A DNA stretch of 64,000 bases from Nemertoderma westbladi (Eukaryota; Animalia; Xenacoelomorpha): the NCBI GenBank assembly GCA_032718475.1, contig JAUCBJ010008647.1, positions 1-64,000 on the forward strand, written 5' to 3'. The position numbers were made by a program, and so were the translations under genes. The notes below the pieces were generated by a model, which saw nothing but the letters and a program-made list of their open reading frames with translations, was not told the DNA's origin and searched no databases. This document shows, in pieces, positions 9,518 to 60,192 of this stretch (positions within the stretch are counted from its first letter, which is position 1; the number at the start of each line of letters is the position of its first letter).

Positions 9518-9935
9518 TGTGAGCGGATTCAATTCCGCCTCACCAACCCCCATAAAGTGGGAAGTGGCGCCTTTAAGCAATATTGGGGATACGAGGTTAA
9601 TCCCCAATTAACCTCGTATCACACACCCAATAAACGGGGACAACAAACCCCGAAGGGCCACACAAAGGGAGGTCAGAGGTTAAACCTCCGGGAGAGGAAA
9701 GTGACAGTAGCGGGGGGGGGGGGGGGGGGGGAAACACTCCCACAGAGGTGGGAGCCGAGAATTAGGTTATTGGCCAATCAGAGCCAGGAAATGCATCCGC
9801 TAAGTAAATGAGGCCACAAGTACAGTAGGTAACCAATATATATTACCGATCAGTATTCTGTAGTTCAGTTATCTCAGTCACACAGGGCAGTACGGTGACA
9901 CTTTAACACCTTCACCGCCATCACCAATTATTGTG
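9518..9935 (+). mobile_element. Truncated LTR of the recurring BEL family (family A)
   Basis: Starts TGTGAGCGGATTCAATTCCGCCTCACCAACCCCCATAAAGTGGG, homologous to the LTRs at 46564 and 51297; 3' part missing. Confidence 0.85.
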
Positions 9936-14335: not shown

Positions 14336-14352
14336 CGGCGGGCACCTTAGGT

Positions 14353-30600: not shown

Positions 30601-33600
30601 ATAACAGACAGAAGGACAGTCACCTGTAATAATTAGTAAACAATAACCTACAGAAGTACAGTCACCTCGCCTGTATTAATTAGTAAACAATAACAGACAG
30701 AAGGACAGTCACCTGTAATAATTAGTAAATAATAAAAGACAGAAAGACAGTCACCTGTAATAATTAGTAAATAATAACAGACAGAAAGACAGTCACCTGT
30801 AATAATTAGTAAACAATAACAGACAGAAGGACGTCACCTGTAATAATTAGTAAACAATAACAGACAGAAGGACAGTCACCTGTAATAATTAGTAAATAAT
30901 AACAGACAGAAAGACAGTCACCTGTAATAATTAGTAAACAATAACAGACAGAAGGACGTCACCTGTAATAATTAGTAAACAATAACAGACAGAAGGACAG
31001 TCACCTGTAATAATTAGTAAATAATAACAGACAGAAGGACAGTCACCTGTAATAATTAGTAAATAATAACAGACAGAAAGACAGTCACCTGTAATAATTA
31101 GTAAACAATAACAGACAGAAAGACAGTCACCTGTAATAATTAGTAAATAATAACAGACAGAAAGACAGTCACCTGTAATAATTAGTAAACAATAACAGAC
31201 AGAAGGACAGTCACCTGTAATAATTAGTAAATAATAACAGACAGAAGGACAGTCACCTGTAATAATTAGTAAATAATAACAGACAGAAAGACAGTCACCT
31301 GTAATAATTAGTAAACAATAACAGACAGAAAGACAGTCACCTGTAATAATTAGTAAATAATAACAGACAGAAAGACAGTCACCTGTAATAATTAGTAAAC
31401 AATAACAGACAGAAGGACAGTCACCTGTAATAATTAGTAAATAATAACAGACAGAAAGACAGTCACCTGTAATAATTAGTAAACAATAACAGACAGAAGG
31501 ACGTCACCTGTAATAATTAGTAAACAATAACAGACAGAAGGACAGTCACCTGTAATAATTAGTAAATAATAACAGACAGAAAGACAGTCACCTGTAATAA
31601 TTAGTAAACAATAACAGACAGAAGGACGTCACCTGTAATAATTAGTAAACAATAACAGACAGAAGGACAGTCACCTGTAATAATTAGTAAATAATAACAG
31701 ACAGAAGGACAGTCACCTGTAATAATTAGTAAATAATAACAGACAGAAAGACAGTCACCTGTAATAATTAGTAAACAATAACAGACAGAAAGACAGTCAC
31801 CTGTAATAATTAGTAAATAATAACAGACAGAAAGACAGTCACCTGTAATAATTAGTAAACGTCCGTAACAGACAGAAGGACAGTCACCTGTAATAATTAG
31901 TAAATAATAACAGACAGAAGGACAGTCACCTGTAATAATTAGTAAATAATAACAGACAGAAAGACAGTCACCTGTAATAATTAGTAAACAATAACAGACA
32001 GAAGGACAGTCACCTGTAATAATTAGTAAACAATAACCTATAATTAGTAAACAATAACAGACAGAAAGACAGTCACCTGTAATAATTAGTAAATAATAAC
32101 AGACAGAAAGACAGTCACCTGTAATAATTAGTAAACAATAACAGACAGAAGGACAGTCACCTGTAATAATTAGTAAACAATAACAGACAGGAGGACAGTC
32201 ACCTGTAATAATTAGTAAATAATAACAGACAGAAGGACAGTCACCTGTAATAATTAGTAAACAATAACCTACAGAAGTACAGTCACCTCGCCTATATTAA
32301 TTAGTAAACAATAACAGACAGAAGGACAGTCACCTGTAATAATTAGTAAATAATAACAGACAGAAAGACAGTCACCTGTAATAATTAGTAAACAATAACA
32401 GACAGAAGGACGTCACCTGTAATAATTAGTAAACAATAACAGACAGAAGGACAGTCACCTGTAATAATTAGTAAACAATAACAGACAGAAGGACAGTCAC
32501 CTGTAATAATTAGTAAATAATAACAGACAGAAAGACAGCCACCTGTAATAATTAGTAAACAATAACAGACAGAAGGACGTCACCTGTAATAATTAGTAAA
32601 CAATAACAGACAGAAGGACAGTCACCTGTAATAATTAGTAAATAATAACAGACAGAAGGACAGTCGCCTGTAATAATTAGTAAATAATAACAGACAGAAA
32701 GACAGTCACCTGTAATAATTAGTAAACAATAACAGACAGAAAGACAGTCACCTGTAATAATTAGTAAATAATAACAGACAGAAAGACAGTCACCTGTAAT
32801 AATTAGTAAACAATAACAGACAGAAGGACAGTCACCTGTAATAATTAGTAAATAATAACAGACAGAAGGACAGTCACCTGTAATAATTAGTAAATAATAA
32901 CAGACAGAAAGACAGTCACCTGTAATAATTAGTAAACAATAACAGACAGAAAGACAGTCACCTGTAATAATTAGTAAATAATAACAGACAGAAAGACAGT
33001 CACCTGTAATAATTAGTAAACAATAACAGACAGAAGGACAGTCACCTGTAATAATTAGTAAATAATAACAGACAGAAGGACAGTCACCTGTAATAATTAG
33101 TAAATAATAATAGACAGAAAGACAGTCACCTGTAATAATTAGTAAACAATAACAGACAGAAAGACAGTCACCTGTAATAATTAGTAAACAATAACCGATA
33201 GAAGGACAGTCACCTGTAATATTTAGTAAACAATAACCTATAATTAGTAAACAATAACCTACAGAAGGACAGTCACCTGTAATAATTAGTAAACAATAAC
33301 CTATAATTAGTAAACAATAACCGATAGAAGGACAGTCACCTGTAATATTTAGTAAACAAAAACCTATAATTAGTAAACAATAACCGATAGAAGGACAGTC
33401 ACCTGTAATAATTAGTAAACAATAACCTATAGAAGGACAGTCACCTGTAATAATTAGTAAACAATAACAGACAGAAGGACAGTCACCTGTAATAATTAGT
33501 AAACAATAACCTATAATTAGTAAACAATAACCGATAGAAGGACAGTCACCTGTAATATTTAGTAAACAATAACCTATAATTAGTAAACAATAACCTACAG

Positions 33601-36513
33601 AAGGACAGTCAACTGTAATAATTAGTAAACAATAACCTATAATTAGTAAACAATAACCGATAGAAGGACAGTCACCTGTAATATTTAGTAAACAAAAACC
33701 TATAATTAGTAAACAATAACAGACAGAAGGACAGTCACCTGTAATAAGTACTAAACAATAACCTATAATTAGTAAACAATAACCTACAGAAGGACAGTCA
33801 CCTGTAATAATTAGTAAACAATAACAGACAGAAAGACAGTCACCTGTAATAATTAGTAAACAATAACCTACAGAAGGACAGTCACCTGTAATAATTAGTA
33901 AACAATAACCTACAGAAGGACAGTCACCTGTAATATTTAGTAAACAATAACCTATAATTAGTAAACAATAACCTACAGAAGGACAGTCACCTGTAATAAT
34001 TAGTAAACAATAACCTACAGAAGGACAGTCACCTGTAATATTTAGTAAACAATAACCTATAATTAGTAAACAATAACCTACAGAAGGACAGTCACCTGTA
34101 ATAATTAGTAAACAATAACCTACAGAAGGAGAGTCACCTGTAATAATTTGTAAACAATAACCTACAGAAGGACAGTCACCTGTACTAATTAGTAAACAAT
34201 AACAGACAGGAGGACAGTCACCTGTAATAATTAGTAAACAATAACCTATAATTAGTAAACAATAACAGACAGAAAGACAGTCACCTGTAATAATTAGTAA
34301 ACAATAACCTACAGAAGTACAGTCACCTGTATTAATTAGTAAACAATAACAGACAGAAGGACAGTCACCTGTAATAATTAGTAAATAATAACAGACAGAA
34401 AGACAGTCACCTGTAATAATTAGTAAATAATAACCTAATTAGTAAACAATAACAGACAGAAAGACAGTCTCCTGTAATAATTAGTAAACAATAACCTATA
34501 ATTAGTAAACAATAACAGACAGAAAGACAGTCACCTGTAATAATTAGTAAACAATAACCTACAGAAGTACAGTCACCTGTATTAATTAGTAAACAATAAC
34601 AGACAGAAGGACAGTCACCTGTAATAATTAGTAAACAATAACAGACAGAAGGACGTCACCTGTAATAATTAGTAAACAATAACAGACAGAAGGACAGTCA
34701 CCTGTAATAATTAGTAAATAATAACAGACAGAAAGACAGTCACCTGTAATAATTAGTAAACAATAACAGACAGAAGGACGTCACCTGTAATAATTAGTAA
34801 ACAATAACAGACAGAAGGACAGTCACCTGTAATAATTAGTAAATAATAACAGACAGAAGGACAGTCACCTGTAATAATTAGTAAATAATAACAGACAGAA
34901 AGACAGTCACCTGTAATAATTAGTAAACAATAACAGACAGAAAGACAGTCACCTGTAATAATTAGTAAATAATAACAGACAGAAAGACAGTCACCTGTAA
35001 TAATTAGTAAACAATAACAGACAGAAGGACAGTCACCTGTAATAATTAGTAAATAATAACAGACAGAAGGACAGTCACCTGTAATAATTAGTAAATAATA
35101 ACAGACAGAAAGACAGTCACCTGTAATAATTAGTAAACAATAACAGACATAAAGACAGTCACCTGTAATAATTAGTAAATAATAACAGACAGAAAGACAG
35201 TCACCTGTAATAATTAGTAAATAATAACAGACAGAAAGACAGTCACCTGTAATAATTAGTAAATAATAACAGACAGAAGGACAGTCACCTGTAATAATTA
35301 GTAAACAATAACCTATAATTAGTAAACAATAACAGACAGAAAGACAGTCTCCTGTAATAATTAGTAAACAATAACAGACAGGACGGTCACCTGTAATAAT
35401 TAGTAAATAATAACAGACAGAAAGACAGTCACCTGTAATAATTAGTAAATAATAACAGACAGAAAGACAGTCACCTGTAATAATTAGTAAACAATAACCT
35501 ATAATTAGTAAACAATAACAGACAGAAAGACAGTCTCCTGTAATAATTAGTAAACAATAACAGACAGGACGGTCACCTGTAATAATTAGTAAATAATAAC
35601 AGACAGAAAGACAGTCTCCAGTAATAATTAGTAAACAATAACAGACAGAAGGACAGTCACCTGTAATAATTAGTAAATAATAACCTATAATTAGTAAACA
35701 ATAACCTATAATTAGTAAACAATAACAGACAGAAAGACAGTCACCTGTAATAATTAGTAAACAATAACCTACAGAAGGACAGTCACCTGTAATAATTAGT
35801 AAACAATAACCTATAATTAGTAAACAATAACAGACAGAAGGACAGTCACCTGTAATAATTAGTAAATAATAACCTATAATTAGTAAACAATAACCTATAA
35901 TTAGTAAACAATAACAGACAGAAAGACAGTCACCTGTAATAATTAGTAAATAATAACAGACAGAAAGACAGTCACCTGTACTAATTAGTAAATAATAACA
36001 GACAGAAGGACAGTCACCTGTAATAATTAGTAAACAATAACCTACAGAAGGACAGTCACCTGTAATAATTAGTAAACAATAACAGACAGAAGGACAGTCA
36101 CCTGTAATAATTAGTAAATAATAACAGACAGAAAGACAGTCACCTGTAATAATTAGTAAATAATAACCTATAATTAGTAAACAATAACCGATAGAAGGAC
36201 AGTCACCTGTAATAATTAGTAAACAATAACAGACAGAAAGACAGTCACCTGTAATAATTAGTAAACAATAACAGACAGAAGGACAGTCACCTGTAATAAT
36301 TAGTAAACAATAACCTATAATTAGTAAACAATAACAGACAGAAAGAAAGACAGTCACCTGTAATAATTAGTAAACAATAACCTACAGAAGGACAGTCACC
36401 TGTACTAATTAGTAAATAATAACAGACAGAAGGACAGTCACCTGTAATAATTAGTAAACAATAACCTACAGAAGGACAGTCACCTGTAATAATTAGTAAA
36501 CAATAACAGACCG
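21676..36513. repeat. 42-bp satellite, main block (about 14.8 kb) with higher-order structure
   Basis: Continuous array of the unit with recurrent variants. Confidence 0.98.
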
Positions 36514-37074
36514 TGTTAGCTTATTCAATTCCGCTAACACCCCACAAAGTAAGCCGTTAAGCAATATTGGGAGCACGAGGTTGATTACCCAACCTCGTGC
36601 CACCCCGACAAAGTGGGAAGGAGAAACGCACAATAGGGGTCAGGGGCCATACCCCTGACAGAGAGAGAATAGCAGGAGTGAGGGGAAACACTCCAAAGGG
36701 CGCCAACAGGGATATTAGCCAATGGGGGAAGGCACCGGCTAGGTAGTGTAACGACGGCCAAACCGTGCAATATATATTATTAGGTACCATGTTACTGTAA
36801 TCAGTTATCTCATTGTATTAGTCGGTTAGCTAGGGTAGAGCGGAGACTTCTAAGACCGTCCTCGCCTACCACCATTTTATCTGTACATACTGTAATAACT
36901 CTTTGTATTTCAACCATCTATACTGTATCCATTTTATACTGTACCCATTACATTATACATATATCGGAGAATCAATAACATCAGAACTCTTAGACTCTTT
37001 TCACATTCACACGGCGGGGACGCGTACTTATAATAACCGCGGATAAACCGGGATCCTCCTTGGATCCCGTCACA
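36514..37074 (+). repeat. LTR, 561 bp
   Basis: TG...CA termini; homology to 51297-51873 and 52039-52630. Confidence 0.92.
36719..36806 (+). promoter_or_regulatory. LTR core promoter: CCAAT box, TATA, initiator
   Basis: CCAAT at 36719, TATATA at 36771, TCAGTT at 36801 (30 bp after TATA); similar arrangement in sister LTRs. Confidence 0.6.
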
Positions 37075-37113
37075 GTCTTAGAATTCCAGCCAGCTACCGA
37101 TCTAAAGTAAAAG

Positions 37114-38964
37114 ATGAGCGACGTAACGCCAACGCGGACCCCGGACGAAGAACTAACGATCCGCGAGGCCGCGACCAGACGGTATAGGCCTACGACGCCG
37201 GACCCATCGGAAACGGGTCATCCGGCAGTTCAGGATGAGGGGGGCCATCTGGAGCCAGAAGTCGAGTCGAGAGGAGGGGGAGTCGAGTTGAGAGAAGGTG
37301 AGGGCGAGTTGGAAGGAGAAAGAGACGAGTCGACACACGACGACGGTCGACATGCCAATGTCGCCGGCCAGCCACAGGCCGAGGGCGACGGACGGCCCAC
37401 CGGGACAGCAACGGTGGGGCCGCCGGTACGACGTCGGACCCGGAGAGATGGAGGAGAGGTCGGCGACGAGGACGTCGGGGTTTCTGATCGACTTCGATGG
37501 GCCTACAACGCGACCCGGAAGATACTTAAGGAGGCCAAGGAGGGGGCGAGGATAGACGAGGTAAAGTTGACAAAAGGACTAGGTGAGTCGGATAAACATT
37601 TTAGTTATCTAATGCGCTTCGGGCAGAGAGAACTGGCCAAGGAGAGAGTGAGAGGGGTTGCCGAGGAACTGTGTGATTTATGGCGGTGTAGGGGTATGCA
37701 ACCTAGCGTAGTGTACATAGGGCCATACTTAGTCGATGCCCGGGGTATAAAATTAGTGGGTTGGAGGAGACCTGAGGAGGGCGAATCCGAGGTTAACCCC
37801 GAGGATTCGGTCTCATCGGTCGGAGGGAATTCCAGTTCCGGGAGGCGGGGGAGAGTTAGTAGGACGGGAAGGTGGAGGGAATCCGTCACAACCGATAAGT
37901 CTGCTACATCCTCCGTAAAAGGAAGACGGGTGAGGGAAATAAACGCGGTGTACCATCTCGATCTGATAGCGCAGGGCCAGAGAGAGGTAGAGAGACAGTT
38001 AGAGGAGGGGAAAGCGCTATTAGAGAAAGAGATGGAACTGATTAAAGAGACCGGAGAGAGGGCCGAGAGAGCCGCGAGAAGCTTTAGGGAGAGTGAGGAA
38101 ATAGGGAGGAAGGAACAAGAGGAGCGTGAGGCGAGAGAGGAAAGTGAGCGTAAAGAGCGCAAGGCTGAACGTAAAGAGCGCGAGGCGAGAGAGGATAAGG
38201 AGCGTAGGGAGTGTGAGGCGAGAGAGGAAAGTGAGCGTAAAGAGCGCAAGGCGGAACGTAAAGAGCGCGAGGCGAGACGAACGGAGAGAATTGAGAGAGA
38301 GAAAGAACTGGCCGAACAGAGCGCGCGGGAGAGTCGGGAAATGATAGCAGACGGGAGGCGTATGCGGGATGGTTTACATGCCCGCCTAGGGGGGTTAATT
38401 CAGTACCAAACCAGACAGCAGCGCATACTGAAATTGGCGCGATTGGGGTTGTCAGAGAGTGAGGCTGGGTCGAGTGCTTTCGAGGAGCCAAGGGCCGAGG
38501 AAACATTTATTAATACCCCACTTACAGGAACCGCACGACAGACCCGAGACTGGTGTAACCGTACGGGCGGGGGGGGGGGGGGGGGGGGGGGTAATAATAA
38601 TACAACAGTAGACGACGTTAATATTAATAGTACCGTATTGGATAACTCTAACCAAACTTTTATTGCAGGAAATATTTTACCTAGTAGTAGTAATTTAAAT
38701 TTAAATCCGAATGATTCTAATATTAATGTAGGAAATAATTATAATATTAATGTAGTTACGCAAAATAATCCAAATAATCTAAATAATAATCTGAATTCGA
38801 ATTTACAAGATAATTCAAGTAACGCAATTGCGCAAAATAATTCGAATAACTTTATTTTGAATGAACAAAATAATTCCGTTTCTAATTTGGGTGCACAAAA
38901 TAATTTAACTGGGGTGGAGGATTTAATTGATTTAACCAATAACGGTACCTGTGGTGCTATTAAT
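37114..38964 (+). pseudogene. gag: Truncated Gag N-terminal region (E/R coiled coil, Asn-rich tract)
   Basis: ATG 40 bp after the LTR; homologous to the gag 5' region of the 52-64 kb element; reads into satellite and stops at 38982. Confidence 0.8.
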
Positions 38965-41900
38965 GTCACCTGTAATAATTAGTAAATAATAACAGACAGA
39001 AAGACAGTCACCTGTAATAATTAGTAAACAATAACAGACAGAAGGACAGTCACCTGTAATAATTAGTAAACAATAACAGACAGAAAGACAGTCACCTGTA
39101 ATAATTAGTAAATAATAACAGACAGAAAGACAGTCACCTGTAATAATTAGTAAACAATAACAGACAGAAGGACAGTCACCTGTAATAATTAGTAAACAAT
39201 AACAGACAGAAGGACAGTCACCTGTAATAATTAGTAAACAATAACAGACAGAAGGACATTCACCTGTAATAATTAGTAAACAATAACAGACAGAAGGACA
39301 GTCACCTGTAATAATTAGTAAATAATAACAGACAGAAGGACAGTCACCTGTAATAATTAGTAAACAATAACAGACAGAAGGACAGTCACCTGTAATAATT
39401 AGTAAATAATAACAGACAGAAAGACAGTCACCTGTAATAATTAGTAAACAATAACAGACAGAAAGACAGTCACCCGTAATAATTAGTAAACAATAACAGA
39501 CAGAAGGACAGTCACCTGTAATAATTAGTAAACAATAACAGACAGAAGGACAGTCACCTGTAATAATTAGTAAATAATAACAGACAGAAGGACAGTCACC
39601 TGTAATAATTAGTAAATAATAACAGACAGAAAGACAGTCACCTGTAATAATTAGTAAACAATAACAGACAGAAAGACAGTCACCTGTAATAATTAGTAAA
39701 CAATAACAGACAGAAGGACAGTCACCTGTAATAATTAGTAAACAATAACAGACAGAAGGACAGTCACCTGTACTAATTAGTAAACAATAACAGACAGAAA
39801 GACAGTCACCTGTAATAATTAGTAAACAATAACAGACAGAAAGACAGTCACCTGTAATAATTAGTAAATAATAACAGACAGAAGGACAGTCACCTGTAAT
39901 AAGTAGTAAACAATAACAGACAGAAGGACAGTCACCTGTAATAATTAGTAAACAATAACAGACAGAAGGACAGTCACCTGTAATAATTAGTAAACAATAA
40001 CAGACAGAAGGACAGTCACCTGTAATAATTAGTAAATAATAACAGACAGAAAGACAGTCACCTGTAATAATTAGTAAACAATAACAGACAGAAAGACAGT
40101 CACCTGTAATAATTAGTAAACAATAACAGACAGAAGGACAGTCACCTGTAATAATTAGTAAACAATAACAGACAGAAGGACAGTCACCTGTAATAATTAG
40201 TAAACAATAACAGACAGAAGGAAATAACAGACAGAAGGACAGTCACCTGTAATAATTAGTAAACAATAACAGACAGAAGGACAGTCACCTGTAATAATTA
40301 GTAAATAATAACAGACAGAAAGACAGTCACCTGTAATAATTAGTAAACAATAACAGACAGAAGGACAGTCACCTGTAATAATTAGTAAACAATAACAGAC
40401 AGAAGGACAGTCACCTGTAATAATTAGTAAACAATAACAGACAGAAGGACAGTCACCTGTAATAATTAGTAAACAATAACAGACAGAAGGACAGTCACCT
40501 GTAATAATTAGTAAACAATAACAGACAGAAGGACAGTCACCTGTAATAATTAGTAAACAATAACAGACAGAAGGACAGTCACCTGTAATAATTAGTAAAC
40601 AATAACAGACAGAAGGACAGTCACCTGTAATAATTAGTAAATAATAGCAGACAGAAGGACAGTCACCTGTAATAATTAGTAAACAATAACAGACAGAAGG
40701 ACAGTCACCTGTAATAATTAGTAAACAATAACAGACAGAAGGACAGTCACCTGTAATAATTAGTAAATAATAACAGACAGAAAGACAGTCACCTGTAATA
40801 ATTAGTAAACAATAACAGACAGAAAGACAGTCACCTGTAATAATTAGTAAACAATAACAGACAGAAGGACAGTCACCTGTAATAATTAGTAAACAATAAC
40901 AGACAGAAGGACAGTCACCTGTAATAATTAGTAAACAATAACCTACAGAAGTACAGTCACCTCGCCTGTACCAATTAGTAAACAATAACAGACAGAAGGA
41001 CAGTCACCTGTAATAATTAGTAAATAATAACAGACAGAAAGACAGTCACCTGTAATAATTAGTAAACAATAACAGATAGAAGGACAGTCACCTGTAATAA
41101 TTAGTAAACAATAACAGACAGAAGGACAGTCACCTGTAATAATTAGTAAACAATAACAGACAGAAGGACAGTCACCTGTAATAATTAGTAAACAATAACA
41201 GACAGAAGGACAGTCACCTGTAATAATTAGTAAATAATAACAGACAGAAGGACAGTCACCTGTAATAATTAGTAAACAATAACCTACAGAAGTACAGTCA
41301 CCTGTAATAATTAGTAAATAATAACAGACAGAAGGACAGTCACCTGTAATAATTAGTAAATAATAACAGACAGAAAGACAGTCACCTGTAATAATTAGTA
41401 AATAATAACAGACAGAAAGACAGTCACCTGTAATAATTAGTAAATAATAACAGACAGAAAGACAGTCACCTGTAATAATTAGTAAATAATAACAGACAGA
41501 AAGACGGTCACCTGTAATAATTAGTAAACAATAACAGACAGAAGGACGTCACCTGTAATAATTAGTAAAAAATAACAGACAGAAGGACAGTCACCTGTAA
41601 TAATTAGTAAATAATAACAGACAGAAGGACAGTCACCTGTAATAATTAGTAAATAATAACAGACAGAAAGACAGTCACCTGTAATAATTAGTAAATAATA
41701 ACAGACAGAAAGACAGTCACCTGTAATAATTAGTAAATAATAACAGACAGAAAGACAGTCACCTGTAATAATTAGTAAACAATAACAGACAGAAGGACAG
41801 TCACCTGTAATAAATAGTAAACAATAACAGACAGAAGGACAGTCACCTGTAATAATTAGTAAACAATAACAGACAGGAGGACAGTCACCTGTAATAATTA

Positions 41901-44900
41901 GTAAACAATAACAGACAGAAGGACAGTCACCTGTAATAATTAGTAAACAATAACAGACTGAAGGACAGTCACCTGTAATAATTAGTAAACAATAACAGAC
42001 AGAAGGACAGTCACCTGTAATAATTAGTAAATAATAACAGACAGAAAGACAGTCACCTGTAATAATTAGTAAACAATAACAGACAGAAGGACAGTCACCT
42101 GTAATAATTAGTAAACAATAACAGACAGAAGGACAGTCACCTGTAATAATTAGTAAACAATAACAGACAGAAGGACAGTCACCTGTAATAATTAGTAAAC
42201 AATAACAGACAGAAGGACAGTCACCTGTAATAATTAGTAAATAATAACAGACAGAAAGACAGTCACCTGTAATAATTAGTAAATAATAACCTATAATTAG
42301 TAAACAATAACAGACAGAAGGACAGTCACCTGTAATAATTAGTAAATAATAACAGACAGAAGGACAGTCACCTGTAATAATTAGTAAACAATAACCTACA
42401 GAAGTACAGTCACCTCGCCTGTAATAATTAGTAAACAATAACAGACAGAAGGACAGTCACCTGTAATAATTAGTAAATAATAACAGACAGAAAGACAGTC
42501 CCTGTAATAATTAGTAAACAATAACAGATAGAAGGACAGTCACCTGTAATAATTAGTAAACAATAACAGACAGAAGGACAGTCACCTGTAATAATTAGTA
42601 AATAATAACTGACAGAAAGACAGTCACCTGTAATAATTAGTAAACAATAACAGATAGAGGGACAGTCACCTGTAATAATTAGTAAACAATAACAGACAGA
42701 AGGACAGTCACCTGTAATAATTAGTAAATAATAACTGACAGAAAGACAGTCACCTGTAATAATTAGTAAACAATAACAGATAGAGGGACAGTCACCTGTA
42801 ATAATTAGTAAACAATAACAGACAGAAGGACAGTCACCTGTAATAATTAGTAAACAATAACAGACAGAAGGACAGTCACCTGTAATAATTAGTAAACAAT
42901 AACCTACAGAAGTACAGTCACCTCGCCTGTAATAATTAGTAAACAATAACAGACAGAAGGACAGTCACCTGTAATAATTAGTAAATAATAACAGACAGAA
43001 AGACAGTCCCTGTAATAATTAGTAAACAATAACAGATAGAAGGACAGTCACCTGTAATAATTAGTAAACAATAACAGATAGAAGGACAGTCACCTGTAAT
43101 AATTAGTAAATAATAACAGATAGAAGGACAGTCACCTGTAATAATTAGTAAATAATAACAGACAGAAGGACAGTCACCTGTAATAATTAGTAAACAATAA
43201 CAGACAGAAGGACAGTCACCTGTAATAATTAGTAAACAATAACAGACAGAAGGACAGTCACCTGTAATAATTAGTAAACAATAACAGACAGAAGGACAGT
43301 CACCTGTAATAATTAGTAAACAATAACAGACAGAAGGAAATAACAGACAGAAGGACAGTCACCTGTAATAATTAGTAAACAATAACAGACAGAAGGACAG
43401 TCACCTGTAATAATTAGTAAATAATAACAGACAGAAAGACAGTCACCTGTAATAATTAGTAAACAATAACAGACAGAAGGACAGTCACCTGTAATAATTA
43501 GTAAACAATAACAGACAGAAGGACAGTCACCTGTAATAATTAGTAAACAATAACAGACAGAAGGACAGTCACCTGTAATAATTAGTAAACAATAACAGAC
43601 AGAAGGACAGTCACCTGTAATAATTAGTAAACAATAACAGACAGAAGGACAGTCACCTGTAATAATTAGTAAACAATAACAGACAGAAGGACAGTCACCT
43701 GTAATAATTAGTAAACAATAACAGACAGAAGGACAGTCACCTGTAATAATTAGTAAATAATAGCAGACAGAAGGACAGTCACCTGTAATAATTAGTAAAC
43801 AATAACAGACAGAAGGACAGTCACCTGTAATAATTAGTAAACAATAACAGACAGAAGGACAGTCACCTGTAATAATTAGTAAATAATAACAGACAGAAAG
43901 ACAGTCACCTGTAATAATTAGTAAACAATAACAGACAGAAAGACAGTCACCTGTAATAATTAGTAAACAATAACAGACAGAATGACAGTCACCTGTAATA
44001 ATTAGTAAACAATAACAGACAGAAGGACAGTCACCTGTAATAATTAGTAAACAATAACCTACAGAAGTACAGTCACCTCGCCTGTACCAATTAGTAAACA
44101 ATAACAGACAGAAGGACAGTCACCTGTAATAATTAGTAAATAATAACAGACAGAAAGACAGTCACCTGTAATAATTAGTAAACAATAACAGATAGAAGGA
44201 CAGTCACCTGTAATAATTAGTAAACAATAACAGACAGAAGGACAGTCACCTGTAATAATTAGTAAACAATAACAGACAGAAGGACAGTCACCTGTAATAA
44301 TTAGTAAACAATAACAGACAGAAGGACAGTCACCTGTAATAATTAGTAAATAATAACAGACAGAAGGACAGTCACCTGTAATAATTAGTAAACAATAACC
44401 TACAGAAGTACAGTCACCTGTAATAATTAGTAAATAATAACAGACAGAAGGACAGTCACCTGTAATAATTAGTAAATAATAACAGACAGAAAGACAGTCA
44501 CCTGTAATAATTAGTAAATAATAACAGACAGAAAGACAGTCACCTGTAATAATTAGTAAATAATAACAGACAGAAAGACAGTCACCTGTAATAATTAGTA
44601 AATAATAACAGACAGAAAGACGGTCACCTGTAATAATTAGTAAACAATAACAGACAGAAGGACGTCACCTGTAATAATTAGTAAAAAATAACAGACAGAA
44701 GGACAGTCACCTGTAATAATTAGTAAATAATAACAGACAGAAGGACAGTCACCTGTAATAATTAGTAAATAATAACAGACAGAAAGACAGTCACCTGTAA
44801 TAATTAGTAAATAATAACAGACAGAAAGACAGTCACCTGTAATAATTAGTAAATAATAACAGACAGAAAGACAGTCACCTGTAATAATTAGTAAACAATA

Positions 44901-46563
44901 ACAGACAGAAGGACAGTCACCTGTAATAAATAGTAAACAATAACAGACAGAAGGACAGTCACCTGTAATAATTAGTAAACAATAACAGACAGGAGGACAG
45001 TCACCTGTAATAATTAGTAAACAATAACAGACAGAAGGACAGTCACCTGTAATAATTAGTAAACAATAACAGACTGAAGGACAGTCACCTGTAATAATTA
45101 GTAAACAATAACAGACAGAAGGACAGTCACCTGTAATAATTAGTAAATAATAACAGACAGAAAGACAGTCACCTGTAATAATTAGTAAACAATAACAGAC
45201 AGAAGGACAGTCACCTGTAATAATTAGTAAACAATAACAGACAGAAGGACAGTCACCTGTAATAATTAGTAAACAATAACAGACAGAAGGACAGTCACCT
45301 GTAATAATTAGTAAACAATAACAGACAGAAGGACAGTCACCTGTAATAATTAGTAAATAATAACAGACAGAAAGACAGTCACCTGTAATAATTAGTAAAT
45401 AATAACCTATAATTAGTAAACAATAACAGACAGAAGGACAGTCACCTGTAATAATTAGTAAATAATAACAGACAGAAGGACAGTCACCTGTAATAATTAG
45501 TAAACAATAACCTACAGAAGTACAGTCACCTCGCCTGTAATAATTAGTAAACAATAACAGACAGAAGGACAGTCACCTGTAATAATTAGTAAATAATAAC
45601 AGACAGAAAGACAGTCCCTGTAATAATTAGTAAACAATAACAGATAGAAGGACAGTCACCTGTAATAATTAGTAAACAATAACAGACAGAAGGACAGTCA
45701 CCTGTAATAATTAGTAAATAATAACTGACAGAAAGACAGTCACCTGTAATAATTAGTAAACAATAACAGATAGAGGGACAGTCACCTGTAATAATTAGTA
45801 AACAATAACAGACAGAAGGACAGTCACCTGTAATAATTAGTAAATAATAACTGACAGAAAGACAGTCACCTGTAATAATTAGTAAACAATAACAGATAGA
45901 GGGACAGTCACCTGTAATAATTAGTAAACAATAACAGACAGAAGGACAGTCACCTGTAATAATTAGTAAACAATAACAGACAGAAGGACAGTCACCTGTA
46001 ATAATTAGTAAACAATAACCTACAGAAGTACAGTCACCTCGCCTGTAATAATTAGTAAACAATAACAGACAGAAGGACAGTCACCTGTAATAATTAGTAA
46101 ATAATAACAGACAGAAAGACAGTCCCTGTAATAATTAGTAAACAATAACAGATAGAAGGACAGTCACCTGTAATAATTAGTAAACAATAACAGATAGAAG
46201 GACAGTCACCTGTAATAATTAGTAAATAATAACAGATAGAAGGACAGTCACCTGTAATAATTAGTAAACAACAACAGACAGAAGGACAGTCACCTGTAAT
46301 AATTAGTAAATAATAACAGACAGAAAGACAGTCACCTGTAATAATTAGTAAACAATAACAGACAGAAGGACAGTCACCTGTAATAATTAGTAAATAATAA
46401 CGTACAGAAGGACAGTCACCTGTAATAATTAGTAAATAATAATAGACAGAAGGACAGTCACCTGTAATAATTAGTAAACAATAACCTATAATTAGTAAAC
46501 AATAACAGACAGAAAGACAGTCTCCTGTAATAATTAGTAAACAATAACAGACAGAAGGACAGT
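38965..46563. repeat. 42-bp satellite block (about 7.6 kb) containing a 3116-bp tandem duplication
   Basis: Diagnostic variants and ORF-track hits recur at a constant offset of 3116 bp. Confidence 0.98.
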
Positions 46564-47091
46564 TGTGAGTGTATTCAATTCTGCCTCACCAACCCCCATA
46601 AAGTGGGCCAGCGAGACCCTTAAGCAATATTGGGAGCACGAGGTTGATTACCAATCAACCTTGTATCACCCCAATAAGTGGGGCAACAATAGGCCCCAAG
46701 AGGACACACACACAATGGGGGTCAGAGGTTACACCTCCGGGAGGGAGAGAGAGACAGCAGCGGGGGGAAGTACACCCAGGGAGATGGGAAGGTGACAAGT
46801 GAGTTATTAGCCAATGGGGGGAAGGCATCGGCTGAGTAGTGTAATGCGGCCAACCGGTGCAATATATTACCATGTCGGTGTATCATTCATTCACTTGTAG
46901 TAAGTCAGTTAGTTAGGACGGTACCGGAACTCTAATTACTGTGACGGGATCCACGGAGGATCCCGGTTTATCCGGTTTCTAATCTACGCGTCCCCGCCGT
47001 GTGTGTGAAAGGTAGAAAGAGTTATTGATCGGTGTATATAGTTCCAAAGGTATAATAGTATATGATAATGGTTGTTATAATATAAGTGTAC

Positions 47092-49877
47092 CGGCAGACT
47101 GCAGGACATACTGTAGGCCTTACTGCACATACTATTATAGGCCATGCTGGGAGAGATAGAGTAGGCGATAGGGTAGTGCGAACGACGGGATTAAACCCGG
47201 AAGTCGCGGAGTACATACCGGTAGGTAGGCAAGAAGTGGGTAGGCCTATATCGGTACAGCAGCATGACTATAATACACAGGGACATAACATATATCCAGG
47301 GAAGGGGAGAGTTATTGCTGATAGATGTATGGGCCCCAATATATTAACATCAACCCCAGTACCAAACATTCCGGTGGGGGGGGGGGGGGGGGGACAGGGT
47401 GACATTCCCCCATTCCAATATCAACAATATACTCGAACAGCAACGAGAACACCTAACCCCCTGGACGAGAACAGGTCTTGCGACACGGAAATATGGAGGG
47501 GGCCGTTACCCCCAATGATATATCCGACGCAACAAGTTAGATCAACAGCAGATAGGACGAACGGATCGCACCCAACGGCAGAATCTGTACAGCATCCATC
47601 GAACCCATTGGAAGCACAGGCGATGGGAATGGCGACGCTAATCGATGCATTAAAGACCAGGATCGAGTTACCACCAGTCGAGCCATTTAAATTCGATGGA
47701 AGTAGGCCGGAAGAATACCTGCAGTTTCGGCGCATGTACAGTAACGAGATATTAAGTAAGAACTTGATGCAGGTGGAGTGCCTAAAATATCTACAGGTGT
47801 ATACAGGAGGCCCAGCATACGACATCGTGAGGCAGTACCAGAGCATCGAGGGCGGCTTCACGACAGCATGGCGGGCGCTAGACAGGGAATACGGACACCC
47901 GGCCAAGATCATCCGGCAAACCCTGAGAGGTATAACATCGGGTGGCCTACAGGACAACCCCGTTAGCATAAAGACCTTTGCGAACAAGGTCGAGAAGGCG
48001 TTAATCGTGTTAAAGACGCTAGACGCGCCATACGAACTCAACGCATCTAATAACATCACCACAATAGCGCAGGCACTGCCGATCTGGCTGCGGAGCAAGT
48101 GGAGGAAGATCGCCTTCTCCACTCGAGAGAAGAAAGGTGCGGAGCCGGGGCTGGAGGAAATGTCAAACTTCCTCAACTACGAAGCCGAGTTGATAACAGA
48201 CCCAGTCTATAGTGAGGATAGTTTGGGGAAGGCGCCAAAGACCGAATACAACAGGCCTGGACCCGAACATAATCCGACAGATCCATTCTCGAGAGTAAGA
48301 CAGTCGCTACCACACGCGGCCACACAGGGGGCTACAAGCCCACAGTTAGCTGGGAGTAGGGCCACACCGTGGCAGGGACAGAAAGAAAATAACACCATAA
48401 ATAAACATAATCCCAATATACCCAGTAGGCCGAGTACAGATAACCAAAACACTAAATCGGTAGATATAAACCTACGCGCAATACGTGAAGGACTATATAG
48501 GGAACGCTATAATCCAGGATTCAAATTTCAATTACATCGGGACGGAACCCATAAGACCATGAGTTCTAAGCACTGGCAAGCGTTGCCCAAACAAGATCGT
48601 ATAGCCTACACAGACGCAAATGGACTATGTCATCGATGTGTGGTAGAAGGACACAGATCCGGAGAGTGTAGAGAAACAGCGACAGGAGATAACGAGACTG
48701 GAGGCCAAACAATGGCTACAAGCACGACAGTGGCAAGAAAGAAGAGAAAAGTACTACTCGGGGTAGTACTGGTGAAGATATCAGGAGAGGGCGGTCGATC
48801 AGTAACGACATTAATGCTGGTCGACAGCGGAGCAGCCTTCACGCTGGTGGAGAACTGGGTGGCCGAAGAGATAGGGCTAAAGACGAGGCCGAATAGAATG
48901 GCGGTAACCACCGTCTCAAGTAAGGATGAGGTCCTGGAGATGAGGACGGGACGGTGCAGGATATCAGCGATTGCACCGGGATGCAACTATGGGGCGACGA
49001 TCGACCCCATCCATGTGATAGAATCGATAAACATCAACGCCAGGCGACCAACCAACATCGAAGTCGAACAATATACAGTACATTCCTGGACGGTATCGAT
49101 TTCTCAATACCAGAGGTGGACGTTAGGAAGGTATCCATTATAGTAGGAATGGACTGCCCGACGGCCCACGAGAGAACAAAGACGGTCTTCGGCGAAGACA
49201 GGCAGCGGGACCCGACGGCGATCCTCACGCCGTTCGGATGGACGCTTAGCGGCCCAGTTAAAACCAAGATTCCATCCAGAGTGACGGAGACATCAGGGTG
49301 CATGTTACCAGGCACCGTAGACACGGAGGTTGAAGAGGAGAAACAGGAGATAGTAGAGCCAGACAGGGAAGTAACAGTAAGAGAGTGGGCGGAGGAGAAT
49401 GGATTTCCCAGCAAGTATCGGTATGGAGATGGAGAGGAGTGGACGGCGAGATGTCCGGAGGAGTGTCCGGTGGAGTGTCAGGAGGACAATAGTCCAGAGC
49501 AGTGTCTAGAGGAGTGTCCAGAGGAGTGTCCGGAAGAGACGCCGGTCCGGTTGAGAGGCATACCGACAAGGGGGAGCTCGAGTAGGAAGACAGGATGGAA
49601 AGGGATAGGACTATTGTTGTACCTTCTGTTTTGCCTGTTCTTTCACTTTCTATTCATTCTGCCGCCGGGAGATAACAAGGTGGGAGGTGGCATTTTGATG
49701 CCAGGAGACGAGAAAGTTAAGAAGGCGGTGGAGAGACCCGATTTCAGGGTGGCAGAAGAGAGAGAACCAATTCCTGGTGAGTTGGAATTGGTGGAGAGAG
49801 TGTGGCAAAGAATAAGAGGACGTATAAAGGAGGCAGTGGGAGAGTGCCTACTGGAAAAAGGGGCACTTCAGAGTTAA
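47092..49877 (+). pseudogene. gag: Gag-protease remnant, 5'-deleted, frameshift near 49075, unrelated C-terminal tail
   Basis: FKFDGSRPEEYLQF, CHRCVVEGHRSGEC, protease MLVDSGAAFT, AILTPFGWTLSGP; highly similar to 60.1-62.3 kb (minus). Confidence 0.85.
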
Positions 49878-51296: not shown

Positions 51297-51873
51297 TGTG
51301 AGCGTATTAAATTCCGCCTCACCAACCCCCATAAAGTGGGCCAGCGAGACCCTTAAGCAATATTGGGAGCACGAGGTTGATTACCAATAAACCTTGTATC
51401 ACCCCAATAAGTGGGGCAACAATAGGCCCCAAGAGGACACACACACAATGGGGGTCAGAGGTTACACCTCCGGGAGGGAGAGAGAGACAGCAGCGGGGGG
51501 AAGTACACCCAGGGAGATGGGAAGGTGACAAGTGAGTTATTAGCCAATGGGGGGAAGGCATCGGCTGATTAGTGTAATGCGGCCAACCGGTGCAATATAT
51601 TACCATGTCGGTGTATCATTCATTCACTTGTAGTAAGTCAGTTAGTTAGGACGGTACCGGAACTCTAATTACCGTCACCGTCATTCCTGTCATCTGCCAA
51701 TAGTACATATATCATTTACCAGTACACTTATATTATAACAACCATTATCATATACTATTATACCTTTGGAACTATATACACCGATCAATAACTCTTTCTA
51801 CCTTTCACACACACGGCGGGGACGCGTAGATTAGAAACCGGATAAACCGGGATCCTCCGTGGATCCCGTCACA
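51297..51873 (+). repeat. 3' LTR, 577 bp
   Basis: TGTGAG...GTCACA; about 5 differences from the 5' copy over 46564-46939. Confidence 0.95.
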
Positions 51874-52038: not shown

Positions 52039-52630
52039 TGTGACGGGATCTGCGGAGGATCCTGGTTTATCCGGTTTTTGGTTCCTAGTTTACGCGTCCC
52101 CACCGTGCGTGAAAGATATAAAGAGTTCTGGGTTGTTGATCAATCGATGTATATAAGTTCGGGATATAATATAATAGAGATAATAGCACAAATGGTTGAT
52201 GTATGATGTAATGTACCGGTAGGTGATATGTACTGGTGACGGGGGGCGGAGACGGTAACTAGACCTAACTGTAACTAACGGTACTGTCCTAACTAGCTGA
52301 CTTACTACAAGTGAATGAAATATTGCATGGACCGGTAATATATTGCACAGTTGGCCATATTGCTCTACCCAGTCGATGCTTCCCCCCAATTGGCTAATAT
52401 CCTAATTGTCGCCCCTTTACCTTCCCTGGAGTGTTTCCCGTTACTCCTGTTATTCCCTCTCTCTCTCAGGGGTGTAACCTCTGACCCCTTTGTGCGTATG
52501 TCCTCCGGGGTTTCCTTGTCCCCACTTTATTGGGGTGGTACGAGGTTGATATTGGATATCAACCTCGTGTTCCCAATATTGCTTAAAGCTCACTTTATGG
52601 GGCTGGTTAGTGGAATTGAATACGCTAACA
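52039..52630 (-). repeat. 3' LTR, 592 bp
   Basis: Minus strand reads TGTTAGCGTATTCAATTCC...CCCGTCACA; preceded by GGGGGGGAG. Confidence 0.93.
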
Positions 52631-53337
52631 CTCCCCCCCATGCTATCTTCCCGGTAAGAAGATAGCATCCACCTCTAGTGCGCTACAATTCCACTGGATC
52701 TCGACCTAGTATCGAGTGTGGGATGGAACTATTTTTATTTTTTTCAGAGCCAGTTTTCCAGACCGCCCCCTATGGGTATGATATTGCTACCCTGTCTACC
52801 TGGCGTCCCGTGTTGGGCCGATCATGCGCTCCTTTCACACGACTTTTGTTTCCCCAACACTTTCGCCACTCTAACTCCACTCTATTCTCACCCTGACTCT
52901 CGCTACTTCTCCTCACCTCCGCTCTAACTTTCGGACTTCCCTGTCCCTCACTCGCCCTCTTGTTCCTCCCCCCCCACACTTGAGTCGCACTTGCACTCTC
53001 TCCGCACTTCGCACTATCGCTCCATCGCTCGACCCCTCCTTGGCTAACTCACTCATCTCTGACGAGTCCCATCCCCCTCTCCTGTGCCGTCGCACTCAGG
53101 AAATGTGAAGTCGTCTAGTGTCTCGTTCGTCATAGTCAGTCATCCCCCGGTCCAGTAGCTAATTGGAAAAAGGTTGAGTGACTATAGTACTTACTTCAAT
53201 TATATTTTGCTAAACTAATAATGATTACTACGTACGTACCTACTAATTGCACTTTTCAATTGTTTAAATTACTTAAATTTATACTTAGGAGTTCGCACGT
53301 CTCGCGTGGTGCCTTCCAGGCATATTACTCCGAAGTC

Positions 53338-56625: not shown

Positions 56626-59600
56626 TCAAGGTGCCCCCTCTAGTAGACAGCATTTTCCTACAGCCCTCCTGTAGGTCTTTCTGTCTTTTGCACCTATCTT
56701 TCCACCTATTCGCACTTCTACCGATCGGACTCTTCCATCCTCATCGGAGTAAGTGCCCACAACTCTCGCCAACCGCCATTGGTTGTTGATGATGGTATCA
56801 TCCGTGACGATCACCAGATCACCCTCCTTTAGCTCTCTGTTCGTGTTCCTCCACTTACTTCTTCTGTGTAATGTGGGCAGATATTCCTCGACCCACCTCC
56901 TCCAGTATTCTGCGCTTATCGCCTTAGCGACTTTCCAACTCTGGCGGGAGTGTATGTCGTCTGGGTCTACACCCCGCATGTCGACTGTCGCCGGCCTCTC
57001 CATTAGAAAGTGACTGGGCGTCAGCACGTCTAATGACTCAGGGTCATCATTCTCTGGATATAGCGGTCTGCTATTAATGATACCCTCACACTTTGCCAGT
57101 ACTGTCCTTAGTACGTCCTCTGTAACCATGTGGGTGTTCATCAGCTTCGTCATCAGACGTTTCGAACTACCCAATAATCTCTCGACGCATCCTAGGGTAT
57201 GCGGAGCATACGGCGTCCTCCTCTCCCACTTTACTTGTCGCCTTCTCATGGCCGCCCTGACTTCCTCCCCTTCCAGGATATCCAAGGCCTCCGCCATCTC
57301 GTTCTCCGCCCCCACAAAGTTGGTCCCGCTGTCAGAATACAGTACTGCGATTGTCCCACCTTTGCGGTCTCTAAATCTTTCTAAAGCATTAATGAATGCT
57401 GATGCGGTTGCATCTTGGGCGAGTTCTATTCCTACCGCCCGCGTGTTGTTACATACGAAGATGATACCATAGCGTTTCTCCGTGTGCCGCATCACCTTAA
57501 TCTTTATCGGCCCGAACATATCCACACTGCAATGCGTAAATGGCGGGTCGTGCTGTCTTACTCTACTGGCCGGTAGTGGCGCCATTTCCTGTATGGCCCG
57601 TTCCTTCTTCTCCCGTCGGCAGCTCTGGCACTGCCCCACTACCGCCTTTACCTTCTTCCTCAACTGTTTGACCCAAAAGGTCCTTCTTATCTCCGTGAGG
57701 GTTCGGTTGGTGCCCCCGTGCAATATCGATTTGTGGGAGTCCCAGATAATCTGGTGGACTATCGGCGATCCTGTGGGAATGATGATGGGCTTCGGTGGTA
57801 CGACGATACTGTTGTTGTATCCCACCCTAGAGTTCATTACTAGGATCCCGTCGTCATTAAGTTGTGGTGACAGCGTGATCAGCTCGCTGTCCCGCCGGAG
57901 ATGCTGTTGCTTACCAACGCGTTCCACCTCGTCGCCATAGTTCTTCCTCTGCTCGTAGTGGATGACTGCTTTGGCCGCTCCTTCCAGGTCTATTGTCGTT
58001 CTAATCTTCACGTCTTTACCAACTCCCCTGAGGAAATTCCCGAAGGCTCTCCAGTATGCCACTAACTTCTTGGTCTTGTACCAACTAGAACTGTAGCTAA
58101 GGAGTTTATCCGTCGGGTTATCGCACAGTTCTCCTGGTTTTGGTTGCACGTCCCTTATCTCCCTCACCATCTGGGAGTATATCTCCTCTCCCTCTGAATC
58201 TCCCTCTTCTCCTTCTGACACTACTTCTCCTGAGCCCGGGTCCACCTTTCTCATCGGCGGCCAGGCCTCCCTATCGCTCAGAAACTGTGGCCCGTGTTGC
58301 CACAATACTTCCTTCTTCAAGAAAGTGTGGCGTACCACGCCCCTCGATAACAATTCCGCTGGGATCTCGTCCGTTGGGCAGTAGTGCCACCTTTCCAGTT
58401 TTGTGGTCGCCCTTATTTCGTCCACTCTATTCGCGACGAATATAGGGTATCTCGTCCTTTCGTTGTGTAGCCAACCGAGCACTACCATGGAATCCGTCCA
58501 GTAGTGTGTTTCCACTATGTTGGGAATAGCGTCCACTAAGTAGGGTATGGCCCTAACTCCTAATCTCGCAGCTGTCAACTCGAGTTTCGGAACTGATGCT
58601 GAGTCTGGTGGCGTCGACTTCGCTTTACTGAATGCGAGTCTGGGCTTGTGAGCCCCCTCTCGTTGTACTAAGTAGAGTGCCGCTCCATATGCCTCTAATG
58701 ACGCATCGGAGAACATATGTAGATCCAGATTCGTCTCCCCATCCGGGAAATATACACGCGGCATGCTGTATGTTCCCATCTGCTCTAAACTCTCTGTCCA
58801 CTTGTTCCACTGCTTACTAATCTCTTCTGGGACCTCTGCGTCCCACTCGTCCTTTAATTTGTATACTCTCTTGAGTATCTGTTTCCCCGTGACTAGTAAT
58901 GGGGATGCTAGGCCTAGGGGATCGTATATCCTCGCTATATATGACACATAGCCCCTCTTTGTGTGGATACCTGCTCCCTCCTGACTCAATTGGTATTTTA
59001 ACTCATCTGTCTCTCTGTTCCACACGATTCCCAGTGCCTTCTGTTGAGACTCTATCCTCTTGTTCGCCATGTCCTGCCCCTTGGCTGTTGTGGGATTATC
59101 CATGGTCGATCCTGGTCTCTCGTCTTTTATTGCCTCGATAAATTCCTTCGAACTGGATTGGAATTTGGTTAGGTTGAAGCTGGATCCTTTAAGGATGTCG
59201 CGAACCTCGCGCCCTGTGTCCAGTAGCTCCTTAACCGTATTTCCAGACTCCATCCCGTTGTCTACGTAGAAGCCGCGTCGAATCATATCGACGGCTTTGG
59301 CGCTGAACTTATCTTCCTTCCCTGCTACCGTATCTCTTACGGCCATAGTCGTTGTAAACGAAGACGACTTGGCTCCCATATTCTGTAATACCATCTTATA
59401 CATTGGTATGGTCGACGGTTCCTCATCGCCGTCGTACCATAGGAAGCGTTGGCTGTCGCTATCCTCTCCCGTTACACGGACTTGGTTGAACATGCCTTCA
59501 ATGTCGCAGGTGAAAGCGTGTTTGCCATTCCTGAATCTGAGTAGGACCTCGATCCCTGAGTTGTAGATGTTGGGACCCTCCAGCAGATAATCGTTTAGGC

Positions 59601-60189
59601 ATTTCCCGTTGGTCTTGGCTGATGCGTCAACTGCCATCCGCAGTTTACCTTTCTTCGGGTCTATAGCCACGTGGAGTGGCAGGTAATAGGTCCTGTCCGT
59701 GTTTGGCTCGTCGACCGGTAACTCCACGGCCCATCCTTTCTCGACATACTTTCTAATTGTCTTCTGGATGTACTCATTCTTCTCGGGGCTCCGTTTTAAC
59801 GTCTGCTTTAACTTGCGAAGCCTCGTAAGTACCATCCCTTTGTTGTCGGGTAACGGTAGCTTTGGTAGCTTCCATACCATCCCTATGGTATACCGCCCCT
59901 CATCGCATGTCATCGATTCCTTTACACTTTGTAAAGCCTGCTTGTCTTCTACCGAGGTTCCGACCCCGGTCTCCTTTAATCCCTCAAAATCCTGCCTGAG
60001 CAGTCTCCTGAGTTGCTCCCCTGCTCCCTCATCCTCCATCTCTCGCATAGTTCCCGCGAACATGCATCCTGATGTCTCCGACATCCTAAATGGTATCTTA
60101 CTCTTGATTGGGCCACTCAGTGTCCACCCGAATGGTGTCAATATCGCCACCGGGTCACATTGCCTGTCTTCGCCGAAGACCGTTTGCAT
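56626..60189 (-). CDS. pol: BEL/Pao Pol: RT, RNase H, integrase (1187 aa open, but cut off from Gag by a stop and an 80-bp duplication)
   Basis: CDIEGMFNQV, FYVDNG, HMFSDAS, VPKLELTAA, WTDS, H...H...CQSC, SVDMFGP, YSDSGTNFVG, GCVERL, LTPSHFL. Confidence 0.95.
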   Translation of the reverse strand: MQTVFGEDRQCDPVAILTPFGWTLSGPIKSKIPFRMSETSGCMFAGTMREMEDEGAGEQLRRLLRQDFEGLKETGVGTSVEDKQALQSVKESMTCDEGRYTIGMVWKLPKLPLPDNKGMVLTRLRKLKQTLKRSPEKNEYIQKTIRKYVEKGWAVELPVDEPNTDRTYYLPLHVAIDPKKGKLRMAVDASAKTNGKCLNDYLLEGPNIYNSGIEVLLRFRNGKHAFTCDIEGMFNQVRVTGEDSDSQRFLWYDGDEEPSTIPMYKMVLQNMGAKSSSFTTTMAVRDTVAGKEDKFSAKAVDMIRRGFYVDNGMESGNTVKELLDTGREVRDILKGSSFNLTKFQSSSKEFIEAIKDERPGSTMDNPTTAKGQDMANKRIESQQKALGIVWNRETDELKYQLSQEGAGIHTKRGYVSYIARIYDPLGLASPLLVTGKQILKRVYKLKDEWDAEVPEEISKQWNKWTESLEQMGTYSMPRVYFPDGETNLDLHMFSDASLEAYGAALYLVQREGAHKPRLAFSKAKSTPPDSASVPKLELTAARLGVRAIPYLVDAIPNIVETHYWTDSMVVLGWLHNERTRYPIFVANRVDEIRATTKLERWHYCPTDEIPAELLSRGVVRHTFLKKEVLWQHGPQFLSDREAWPPMRKVDPGSGEVVSEGEEGDSEGEEIYSQMVREIRDVQPKPGELCDNPTDKLLSYSSSWYKTKKLVAYWRAFGNFLRGVGKDVKIRTTIDLEGAAKAVIHYEQRKNYGDEVERVGKQQHLRRDSELITLSPQLNDDGILVMNSRVGYNNSIVVPPKPIIIPTGSPIVHQIIWDSHKSILHGGTNRTLTEIRRTFWVKQLRKKVKAVVGQCQSCRREKKERAIQEMAPLPASRVRQHDPPFTHCSVDMFGPIKIKVMRHTEKRYGIIFVCNNTRAVGIELAQDATASAFINALERFRDRKGGTIAVLYSDSGTNFVGAENEMAEALDILEGEEVRAAMRRRQVKWERRTPYAPHTLGCVERLLGSSKRLMTKLMNTHMVTEDVLRTVLAKCEGIINSRPLYPENDDPESLDVLTPSHFLMERPATVDMRGVDPDDIHSRQSWKVAKAISAEYWRRWVEEYLPTLHRRSKWRNTNRELKEGDLVIVTDDTIINNQWRLARVVGTYSDEDGRVRSVEVRIGGKIGAKDRKTYRRAVGKCCLLEGAP

Positions 60190-60192
60190 TCT

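Follow-up and report, generated by a model that had tools for sequence, protein, structure and literature searches.

A family of BEL/Pao retrotransposons probably primes its minus-strand DNA independently of tRNA, from a 5' fragment of its own transcript; a probability of roughly three in four is assigned to this reading. The letters that directly follow the 5' LTR of one element are the reverse complement of a motif inside that LTR, and in a second family they change in step with the motif.

The BEL/Pao elements and their satellite setting

The window (the whole stretch analysed, positions 1-64,000) is eukaryotic repeat DNA, in which LTR retrotransposons are nested in a 42-bp satellite. Five related LTRs were found in it: 36514-37074, 46564, 51297-51873, 52631-52039 on the minus strand, and a truncated copy at 9518.

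36514..37074, plus strand: 5' LTR (TG...CA, 561 nt) of a BEL/Pao element inside the 42-bp satellite
37111..38982, plus strand: gag-type ORF (ATG 37114) of the 36514 element, truncated by satellite from about 38965
51297..51873, plus strand: intact 3' LTR of the sister family, motif 51664-51672, with a G-rich tract before it and the target duplication after it
52039..52631, minus strand: 3' LTR of a third member, motif ending 52255; its 5' LTR lies outside the window
56626..60192, minus strand: Pol ORF of the third member, with RT, RNase H with D-E-D motifs and integrase; Peptidase_A17, DUF5641
9518..9930, plus strand: truncated LTR of a fourth member, motif ending 9909
9253-9517, 19128-20637, 21677-36511, 38965-46563 and 51874-52035: 42-bp satellite

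The sister copies were assigned to BEL/Pao because their ORFs (47086, 56629 and 60483) carry DUF1759, Peptidase_A17, DUF5641 and an H2C2 integrase domain. The domain order in the 52039-64000 element is protease-RT-RNase H-integrase, as in BEL/Pao. The ORF at 37111-38982 gave no Pfam match of its own and was assigned through its DNA identity to the gag region of the sister element (75.6% over 872 nt), the Pfam domains coming from the sister copies. LTRs of 561-593 nt, inside the 0.2-1.2 kb range of BEL/Pao, with TG...CA ends, the G-rich tract and the 5-bp target duplication also agree with BEL/Pao. Judged from its proteins the 36514 family is BEL/Pao, and judged from its putative priming position it is a variant.

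All intact LTR boundaries of the family within the window adjoin the 42-bp satellite, which suggests targeted or tolerated insertion. The RT active-site motif of the Pol at 56626-60192 reads YVDN, and that of a second BEL lineage of the window YVDD; the YVDN copy is probably inactive.

The post-LTR sequence and the predicted primer duplex

36770..36806, plus strand: TATA-like box (36770) and Inr-like TCAGTT (36801-06), with the start near 36803 as a prediction only
36817..36847, plus strand: 5' part of the predicted RNA, with imperfect predicted pairing to the leader at 37084-37106
36848..36856, plus strand: candidate self-primer motif, with 36856 as the predicted 3' end of the primer
36857..36866, plus strand: 5' arm of a predicted LTR-internal helix, starting one base past the motif
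37013..37022, plus strand: 3' arm of the same predicted helix; its GGGGACG block is conserved in 3/3 complete LTRs
37049..37069, plus strand: hairpin just 5' of the LTR end, predicted in 36514 and 51297 and weaker in 52631
37075..37083, plus strand: candidate primer-binding position, the reverse complement of 36848-36856, with no spacer and no TGG

Two observations place the LTR end at 37074: it is identical to the ends of two 3' LTRs that border on satellite (51873 and 52039), and the sister element is flanked by a 5-bp target duplication (46559-63 / 51874-78). An earlier note on this DNA had claimed that this end is followed by the reverse complement of 36848-36856 rather than by TGG, with the duplex flush to the LTR terminus. 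Its coordinates and sequence were correct, and no spacer separates 37074 from the complementary letters. TGG is absent within 6 nt of the LTR end of the 36514 element, unlike a tRNA-type primer-binding site (PBS); an 18-nt PBS that pairs with the 3' end of a tRNA, which serves as the ICTV criterion, was not found in this element. The 64-kb window contains no tRNA genes. At lengths of 5 to 9 letters, the match between 37075-37083 and 36848-36856 occurs only once in the LTR; it does not extend beyond 9. The last letters of the motif, AC, are invariant in 4/4 LTRs, and the remaining letters vary.

The chance of the 9-mer, previously put at about 0.2%, was 0.23% in dinucleotide shuffles of the LTR (46/20,000), and a match was recovered in 4/500 shuffles once spacers of 0-3 nt and splice junctions were permitted. 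The 9-nt match by itself is suggestive rather than decisive. The self-complementarity of the post-LTR sequence is nevertheless real as a feature of the DNA, and the 36514 element is the sole molecule that carries motif and PBS together. Splicing was rejected as a primer source for this family: the best spliced match was 4 nt versus 9 contiguous, and no usable intron lies between the TATA box and the motif.

The letters at 36801 are Inr-like, as the earlier note had it, and the spacing from TATA to Inr is 27-33 nt in 4/4 LTRs. From the predicted start to the motif end, primers of 43-62 nt are predicted among the sister LTRs, so that 54 nt is not a constant primer size. The bulged extension of the core pairing was found (36842-45 with 37084-87), and the predicted duplex, 36817-36856 with 37075-37106, is longer than had been described. 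Folding of the 54 nt from the Inr-like site with the leader gave -29.6 kcal/mol for the whole duplex, against -16.7 +/- 3.3 for shuffles (3/2000 as good). When all 54-nt windows in 36514-38900 were scored, it ranked top (-30.4, runner-up -24.3). Predicted pair probabilities in the duplex were about 0.9. Taken alone, the pairing upstream of 36842 was marginal and not significant (107/2000 shuffles). The predicted fold of 36803-37110 had a z score of -2.3 (2/100 shuffles).

In the predicted fold, the motif helix passes without a change of strand into a helix of 10 bp (36857-66 pairing with 37013-22), and the predicted primer end is the junction of the two. The adjacent helix has probabilities of 0.93-1.0 in the 36514 LTR and 0.97-0.98 in the 52631 LTR, lower at the first base, and is formed by different letters in the two. 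It is ambiguous in the 51297 LTR (0.36-0.52), so that two of the three complete LTRs have a strong helix. The 52631 LTR also contains a partial motif duplication (52255-52285, minus strand), which provides two possible primer ends separated by about 16 nt.

Under the proposed mechanism, transcription would start about 30 nt past the TATA box, and the first 43-62 nt would fold back over PBS and leader sequence. The motif helix would stack on another one, made up of the ten bases that follow and the conserved block near the LTR end, and the RNA would be cut where the two helices meet, after the invariant AC. The cut would thus be placed by structure rather than by distance from the cap. The cutter would most likely be the element's own RNase H, on the analogy of Tf1, which is said to need duplexes beside its primer helix; RNase H acidic motifs are present in the sister Pol, where the cutting activity itself is presumed. 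Reverse transcriptase would then extend the resulting 3' end into the LTR terminus.

The primer could also derive from the element without being cut from its genome, if short LTR transcripts (capped, prematurely ended or made by a small-RNA pathway) ended at the motif and acted in trans. The predicted 43-62 nt agrees in size with promoter-proximal short RNAs; LTR copies are highly abundant in the DNA runs, and the long predicted duplex would retain a free RNA well. The conserved helix that begins one base past the motif is, however, easier to explain if the motif and the downstream RNA are one molecule, and this alternative is considered unlikely. Still less credit is given to the motif being an RNA 3' end in the 3' LTR (a cleavage/poly(A) site), with the tail end of the genome as primer. 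Downstream of the motif there is no clear poly(A) signal, only AATAAC/GATAAA, as this reading would allow. Against it, neither AATAAA nor ATTAAA occurs between TATA box and motif in 4/4 LTRs, and the pairing of upstream sequence with the leader and the adjacent helix suit a 5' copy. A cut within the element's own 5' RNA is the preferred reading.

Covariation in a second family and the inverted 46564 copy

Covariation was analysed in contigs of four DNA runs (of six), which come from one organism and three studies; X1 and X2 are one sample, and one of the four runs may be the source of the window DNA. The probe was 46912-46980, whose minus strand reads the LTR end followed by the complement of the second family's motif. 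The motifs of the 36514 and 46564/51297 families differ at 5/9 ungapped places. In X1, 9 contigs align from the LTR end to 46931, nine letters past it, and then continue with unlike sequence; in X3, 6 contigs do the same and then diverge. X2 pieces also reach 46931, piece 10 with one difference in 42 nt. The next three letters of the X1 cell can pair with 46926-28, resembling the bulged extension of the 36514 element. Another 9 X3 contigs depart after two letters, and their cell has the 36514 reading. A further post-LTR variant is present at 46933, in rows from each of the four runs.

The prediction that post-LTR letters complement the family's own motif thus held over 9 letters for the 46564 family, in contigs from two studies. 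An X5 row at 46936 (3 contigs, mixed, agreement 0.68) carries the 52039-predicted letters for seven positions and then differs, and the 9518-predicted form was absent from the 24 loose-end rows covered, of 61. When 36505-37330 was compared with the contigs, seven joints kept the LTR end plus 2 letters (six, 37076) or plus 9 (one, 37083), after which the sister contigs re-enter gag. The two letters kept match the motif's final AC, which is invariant in 4/4 LTRs.

Satellite flanks were rejected as the origin of the 9-nt extensions in the main rows, with at least 2/9 mismatches to the probe, and the contig cells past the LTR end are not satellite-like by eye. These cells are mixtures (agreement 0.5-0.7) of contigs too short to link motif and PBS, and the second family is tied in through short contigs, with an LTR end almost identical in all families. 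Within these limits, the PBS letters change in step with the LTR motif in the second family.

These data bear on the view that the pairing is a structural switch for translation, packaging or dimerisation, the primer being a host tRNA half or another host RNA. Half-tRNA priming is known in copia-type elements (PMC6317226 and PMC10886601, excerpts), and the predicted duplex reaches toward the gag start. A host primer is disfavoured because it would keep the post-LTR letters constant, whereas those beyond the first two vary between families and track the LTR motif. In half-tRNA-primed elements (copia, Ty5, Osser, Bianca) the PBS fits an internal tRNA segment, and the variable site of the 36514 family argues against this. 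The helix is also flush with the LTR end, where synthesis has to begin. This view is regarded as improbable, marginally more so than a short RNA acting in trans.

The 5' LTR of the second family is rearranged at the motif:

46564..46939, plus strand: sister family 5' LTR from U3 to the motif end (motif 46931-46939), with 5 differences in 376 nt from 51297-51672
46940..47094, minus strand: inverted copy of the final 155 nt of this LTR, with 1 difference in 155 and its terminus flush to the motif

The gag sequence starts again at 47095, directly after the inverted segment. The inversion lies exactly at the motif, beyond mere damage; the arrangement at 46939/46940 is the sequence expected of primer plus minus-strand DNA, and both inversion breakpoints fall at the predicted primer/cDNA joint. 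One X3 contig spans 46913-46962 with no mismatch, with only 27 nt left of the joint, short of the bridging rule. The inversion is present in X3 contigs and was not seen in X1, X2 or X5. Measured against its sister, the 46564 element has lost the PBS, the leader and at least 1.6 kb despite a perfect target duplication, and the second joint of the inversion has no microhomology relative to the sister.

This inversion is what reverse transcription would produce if it went on to copy its own primer. A DNA template switch inside the 9-nt homology would produce the identical product, so the inversion has no power to fix the primer end. The 46564 copy proves an inverted repeat, not a primer end.

Distant relatives, known systems and significance

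The best matches of the window Pol are 30-37% identical, with nothing above 37%. LTR-end patterns gave 0 matches in viral contigs and in metagenome contigs, and none of 31 candidates in viral contigs was a Pol relative; with these searches empty, no close relatives from other species were obtained. More distant relatives came from 78 metagenome loci; 53 of these were entered, and LTR pairs were sought in 46. A usable LTR end was available in 14, with both ends seen in 8 and the end set by eye in 6. Left out were L005 and L023 (end unclear), L020 and L077 (near copies), and L045 and L058 (no end fixed); the remaining loci were unexamined or without LTR pairs. L001, the best Pol match, was dropped for want of a usable LTR pair. 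Splice acceptors required 7 pyrimidines in 12, applied equally to data and shuffles.

Among the eight loci with both ends seen, two near-identical loci had a TGG site, five matched 11-15 nt across a predicted LTR intron (0/500 shuffles each), and one had a contiguous 11-nt match (0/500). In all six by-eye loci a match of 9-13 nt spans a predicted intron (0-10/500 shuffles). Twelve of the 14 distant relatives are thus self-complementary, 11 of them across a predicted splice junction, and two are tRNA-type. In the twelve, the post-LTR sequence starts with GT (10/12) or AT (2/12).

The intron-type loci (L012, L013, L018, L025, L029, L030, L060, L070, L074, L075 and L076) match over 9-15 nt across a predicted GT..AG LTR intron, with the predicted primer end 4-7 nt past the acceptor; in L025 the 5' LTR end is one base off, which leaves its 11-nt match unaffected. 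A second intron-free case, L028 (550-980), has a contiguous 11-nt self match with a 3-nt spacer and stands amid the splice-type group. L002, L003 and L031 have tRNA-type TGG sites past a T-rich spacer of 5-6 nt. The 36514 family differs from 11/12 of the self-complementary relatives in its contiguous motif, the lack of a spacer and of intron removal, and its long branch.

The relatives also weigh on the reading that the pairing has no function, the post-LTR segment being an inverted duplication of LTR sequence or a product of chance. A comparable inversion is known at 46940-47094, and the core match is just 9 nt. The match is kept with different letters in the second family and in 12/14 distant relatives, however, and an element without a primer site could not reach the observed copy abundance. 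The absence of function is judged very improbable, on a par with priming from the RNA 3' end.

Phylogenetic analyses gave two placements. With FastTree (72 rows), the window Pol grouped with other long branches, away from the self-complementary group. With an IQ-TREE mixture model (30 of those 72 rows), it fell, together with all 12 self-complementary loci, inside a group supported at 99/99, and the tRNA-type L002, L003 and L031 fell outside. Placement of the window Pol within the self-complementary clade is tentative because of its long branch and the disagreement of the two trees. In both trees, subject to the same long-branch warning, the second BEL lineage of the window is sister to the 36514 family. 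That lineage lies at 738-7400 and 10890-19124 on the minus strand and has long leaders with 95-bp and 285-bp repeats; neither an LTR pair nor a clear primer site was found for it in the window.

Self-priming as such is known. The first 11 bases of Tf1 RNA serve as primer, freed by an RNase H cut (PMC7175516, excerpt), and Tj1 of S. japonicus self-primes with a PBS complementary to its own 5' LTR RNA (PMC4600332, excerpt). Tf1/Tf2 of S. pombe, Tj1, the Tf1/sushi group and plant Tcn1 (PMC6317226, excerpt) share with the 36514 family a PBS that complements the element's own 5' LTR RNA, with no tRNA. The comparison is one of working, not of membership: Tf1/sushi elements have Ty3/gypsy (chromovirus) proteins, whereas those of the 36514 family are BEL/Pao. 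The Tf1 primer is the first 11 bases; in the 36514 family the motif end is predicted 43-62 nt past the start, and the predicted duplex is longer and imperfect. The primer-freeing RNase H cut described for Tf1 is a prediction for the 36514 family, and the evidence on its priming consists of DNA sequence and predicted folding. For TAR/Houba/Osr-1, plant Ty1/copia elements, self-primers were likewise predicted from post-LTR complementarity to the 5' LTR, in copia and in plants and with a threshold of at least 10 bp; the perfect core of the 36514 family, 9 nt, is below that 10-nt threshold (PMC6317226, excerpt).

ICTV describes BEL/Pao (Belpaoviridae, Semotivirus) as host-tRNA-primed, with an 18-nt PBS for tRNA-Arg or tRNA-Gly, and its replication as poorly understood (PMC8742986). 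The 36514 family shares with that description the protein domains and their order, the LTR size and the purine tract; a tRNA-Arg or tRNA-Gly PBS is absent. The C. elegans BEL element Cer7 has reportedly been proposed to encode its own tRNA-like primer. No published case of BEL/Pao self-priming was found, with subscription papers, Repbase and GyDB outside the search scope; PMC554778 and PMC3118150 do not contain the words tRNA or priming, and PMC3286476 (excerpt) holds no BEL data. The mechanism would therefore be a known one, not found in print for the BEL/Pao superfamily, and the predicted long, intron-free primer appears distinct.

A wider scenario is held with less than even confidence. A large BEL/Pao branch, extending from the 36514 family as far as elements with fish and sea-urchin proteins among their relatives, would do without tRNA priming; most of its members would splice their primer, the 36514 family would use an intron-free one, roughly 50 nt long, that is cut at a three-way junction, and the 46564 copy would be an integrated primer-cDNA fossil.

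If the main reading is true, self-priming would extend to a third superfamily of LTR elements; the primer would far exceed that of Tf1 in length, and the cut would be located inside the RNA through structure; the predicted positions are exact, with the primer 3' end at 36856 and the new 5' end at 36857. It would account for tRNA-based PBS finders missing such elements, and the elements may escape control through tRNA supply or tRNA fragments. The finding is also relevant to whether hairpin priming is an ancestral trait or one regained repeatedly (PMC3601003, excerpt).
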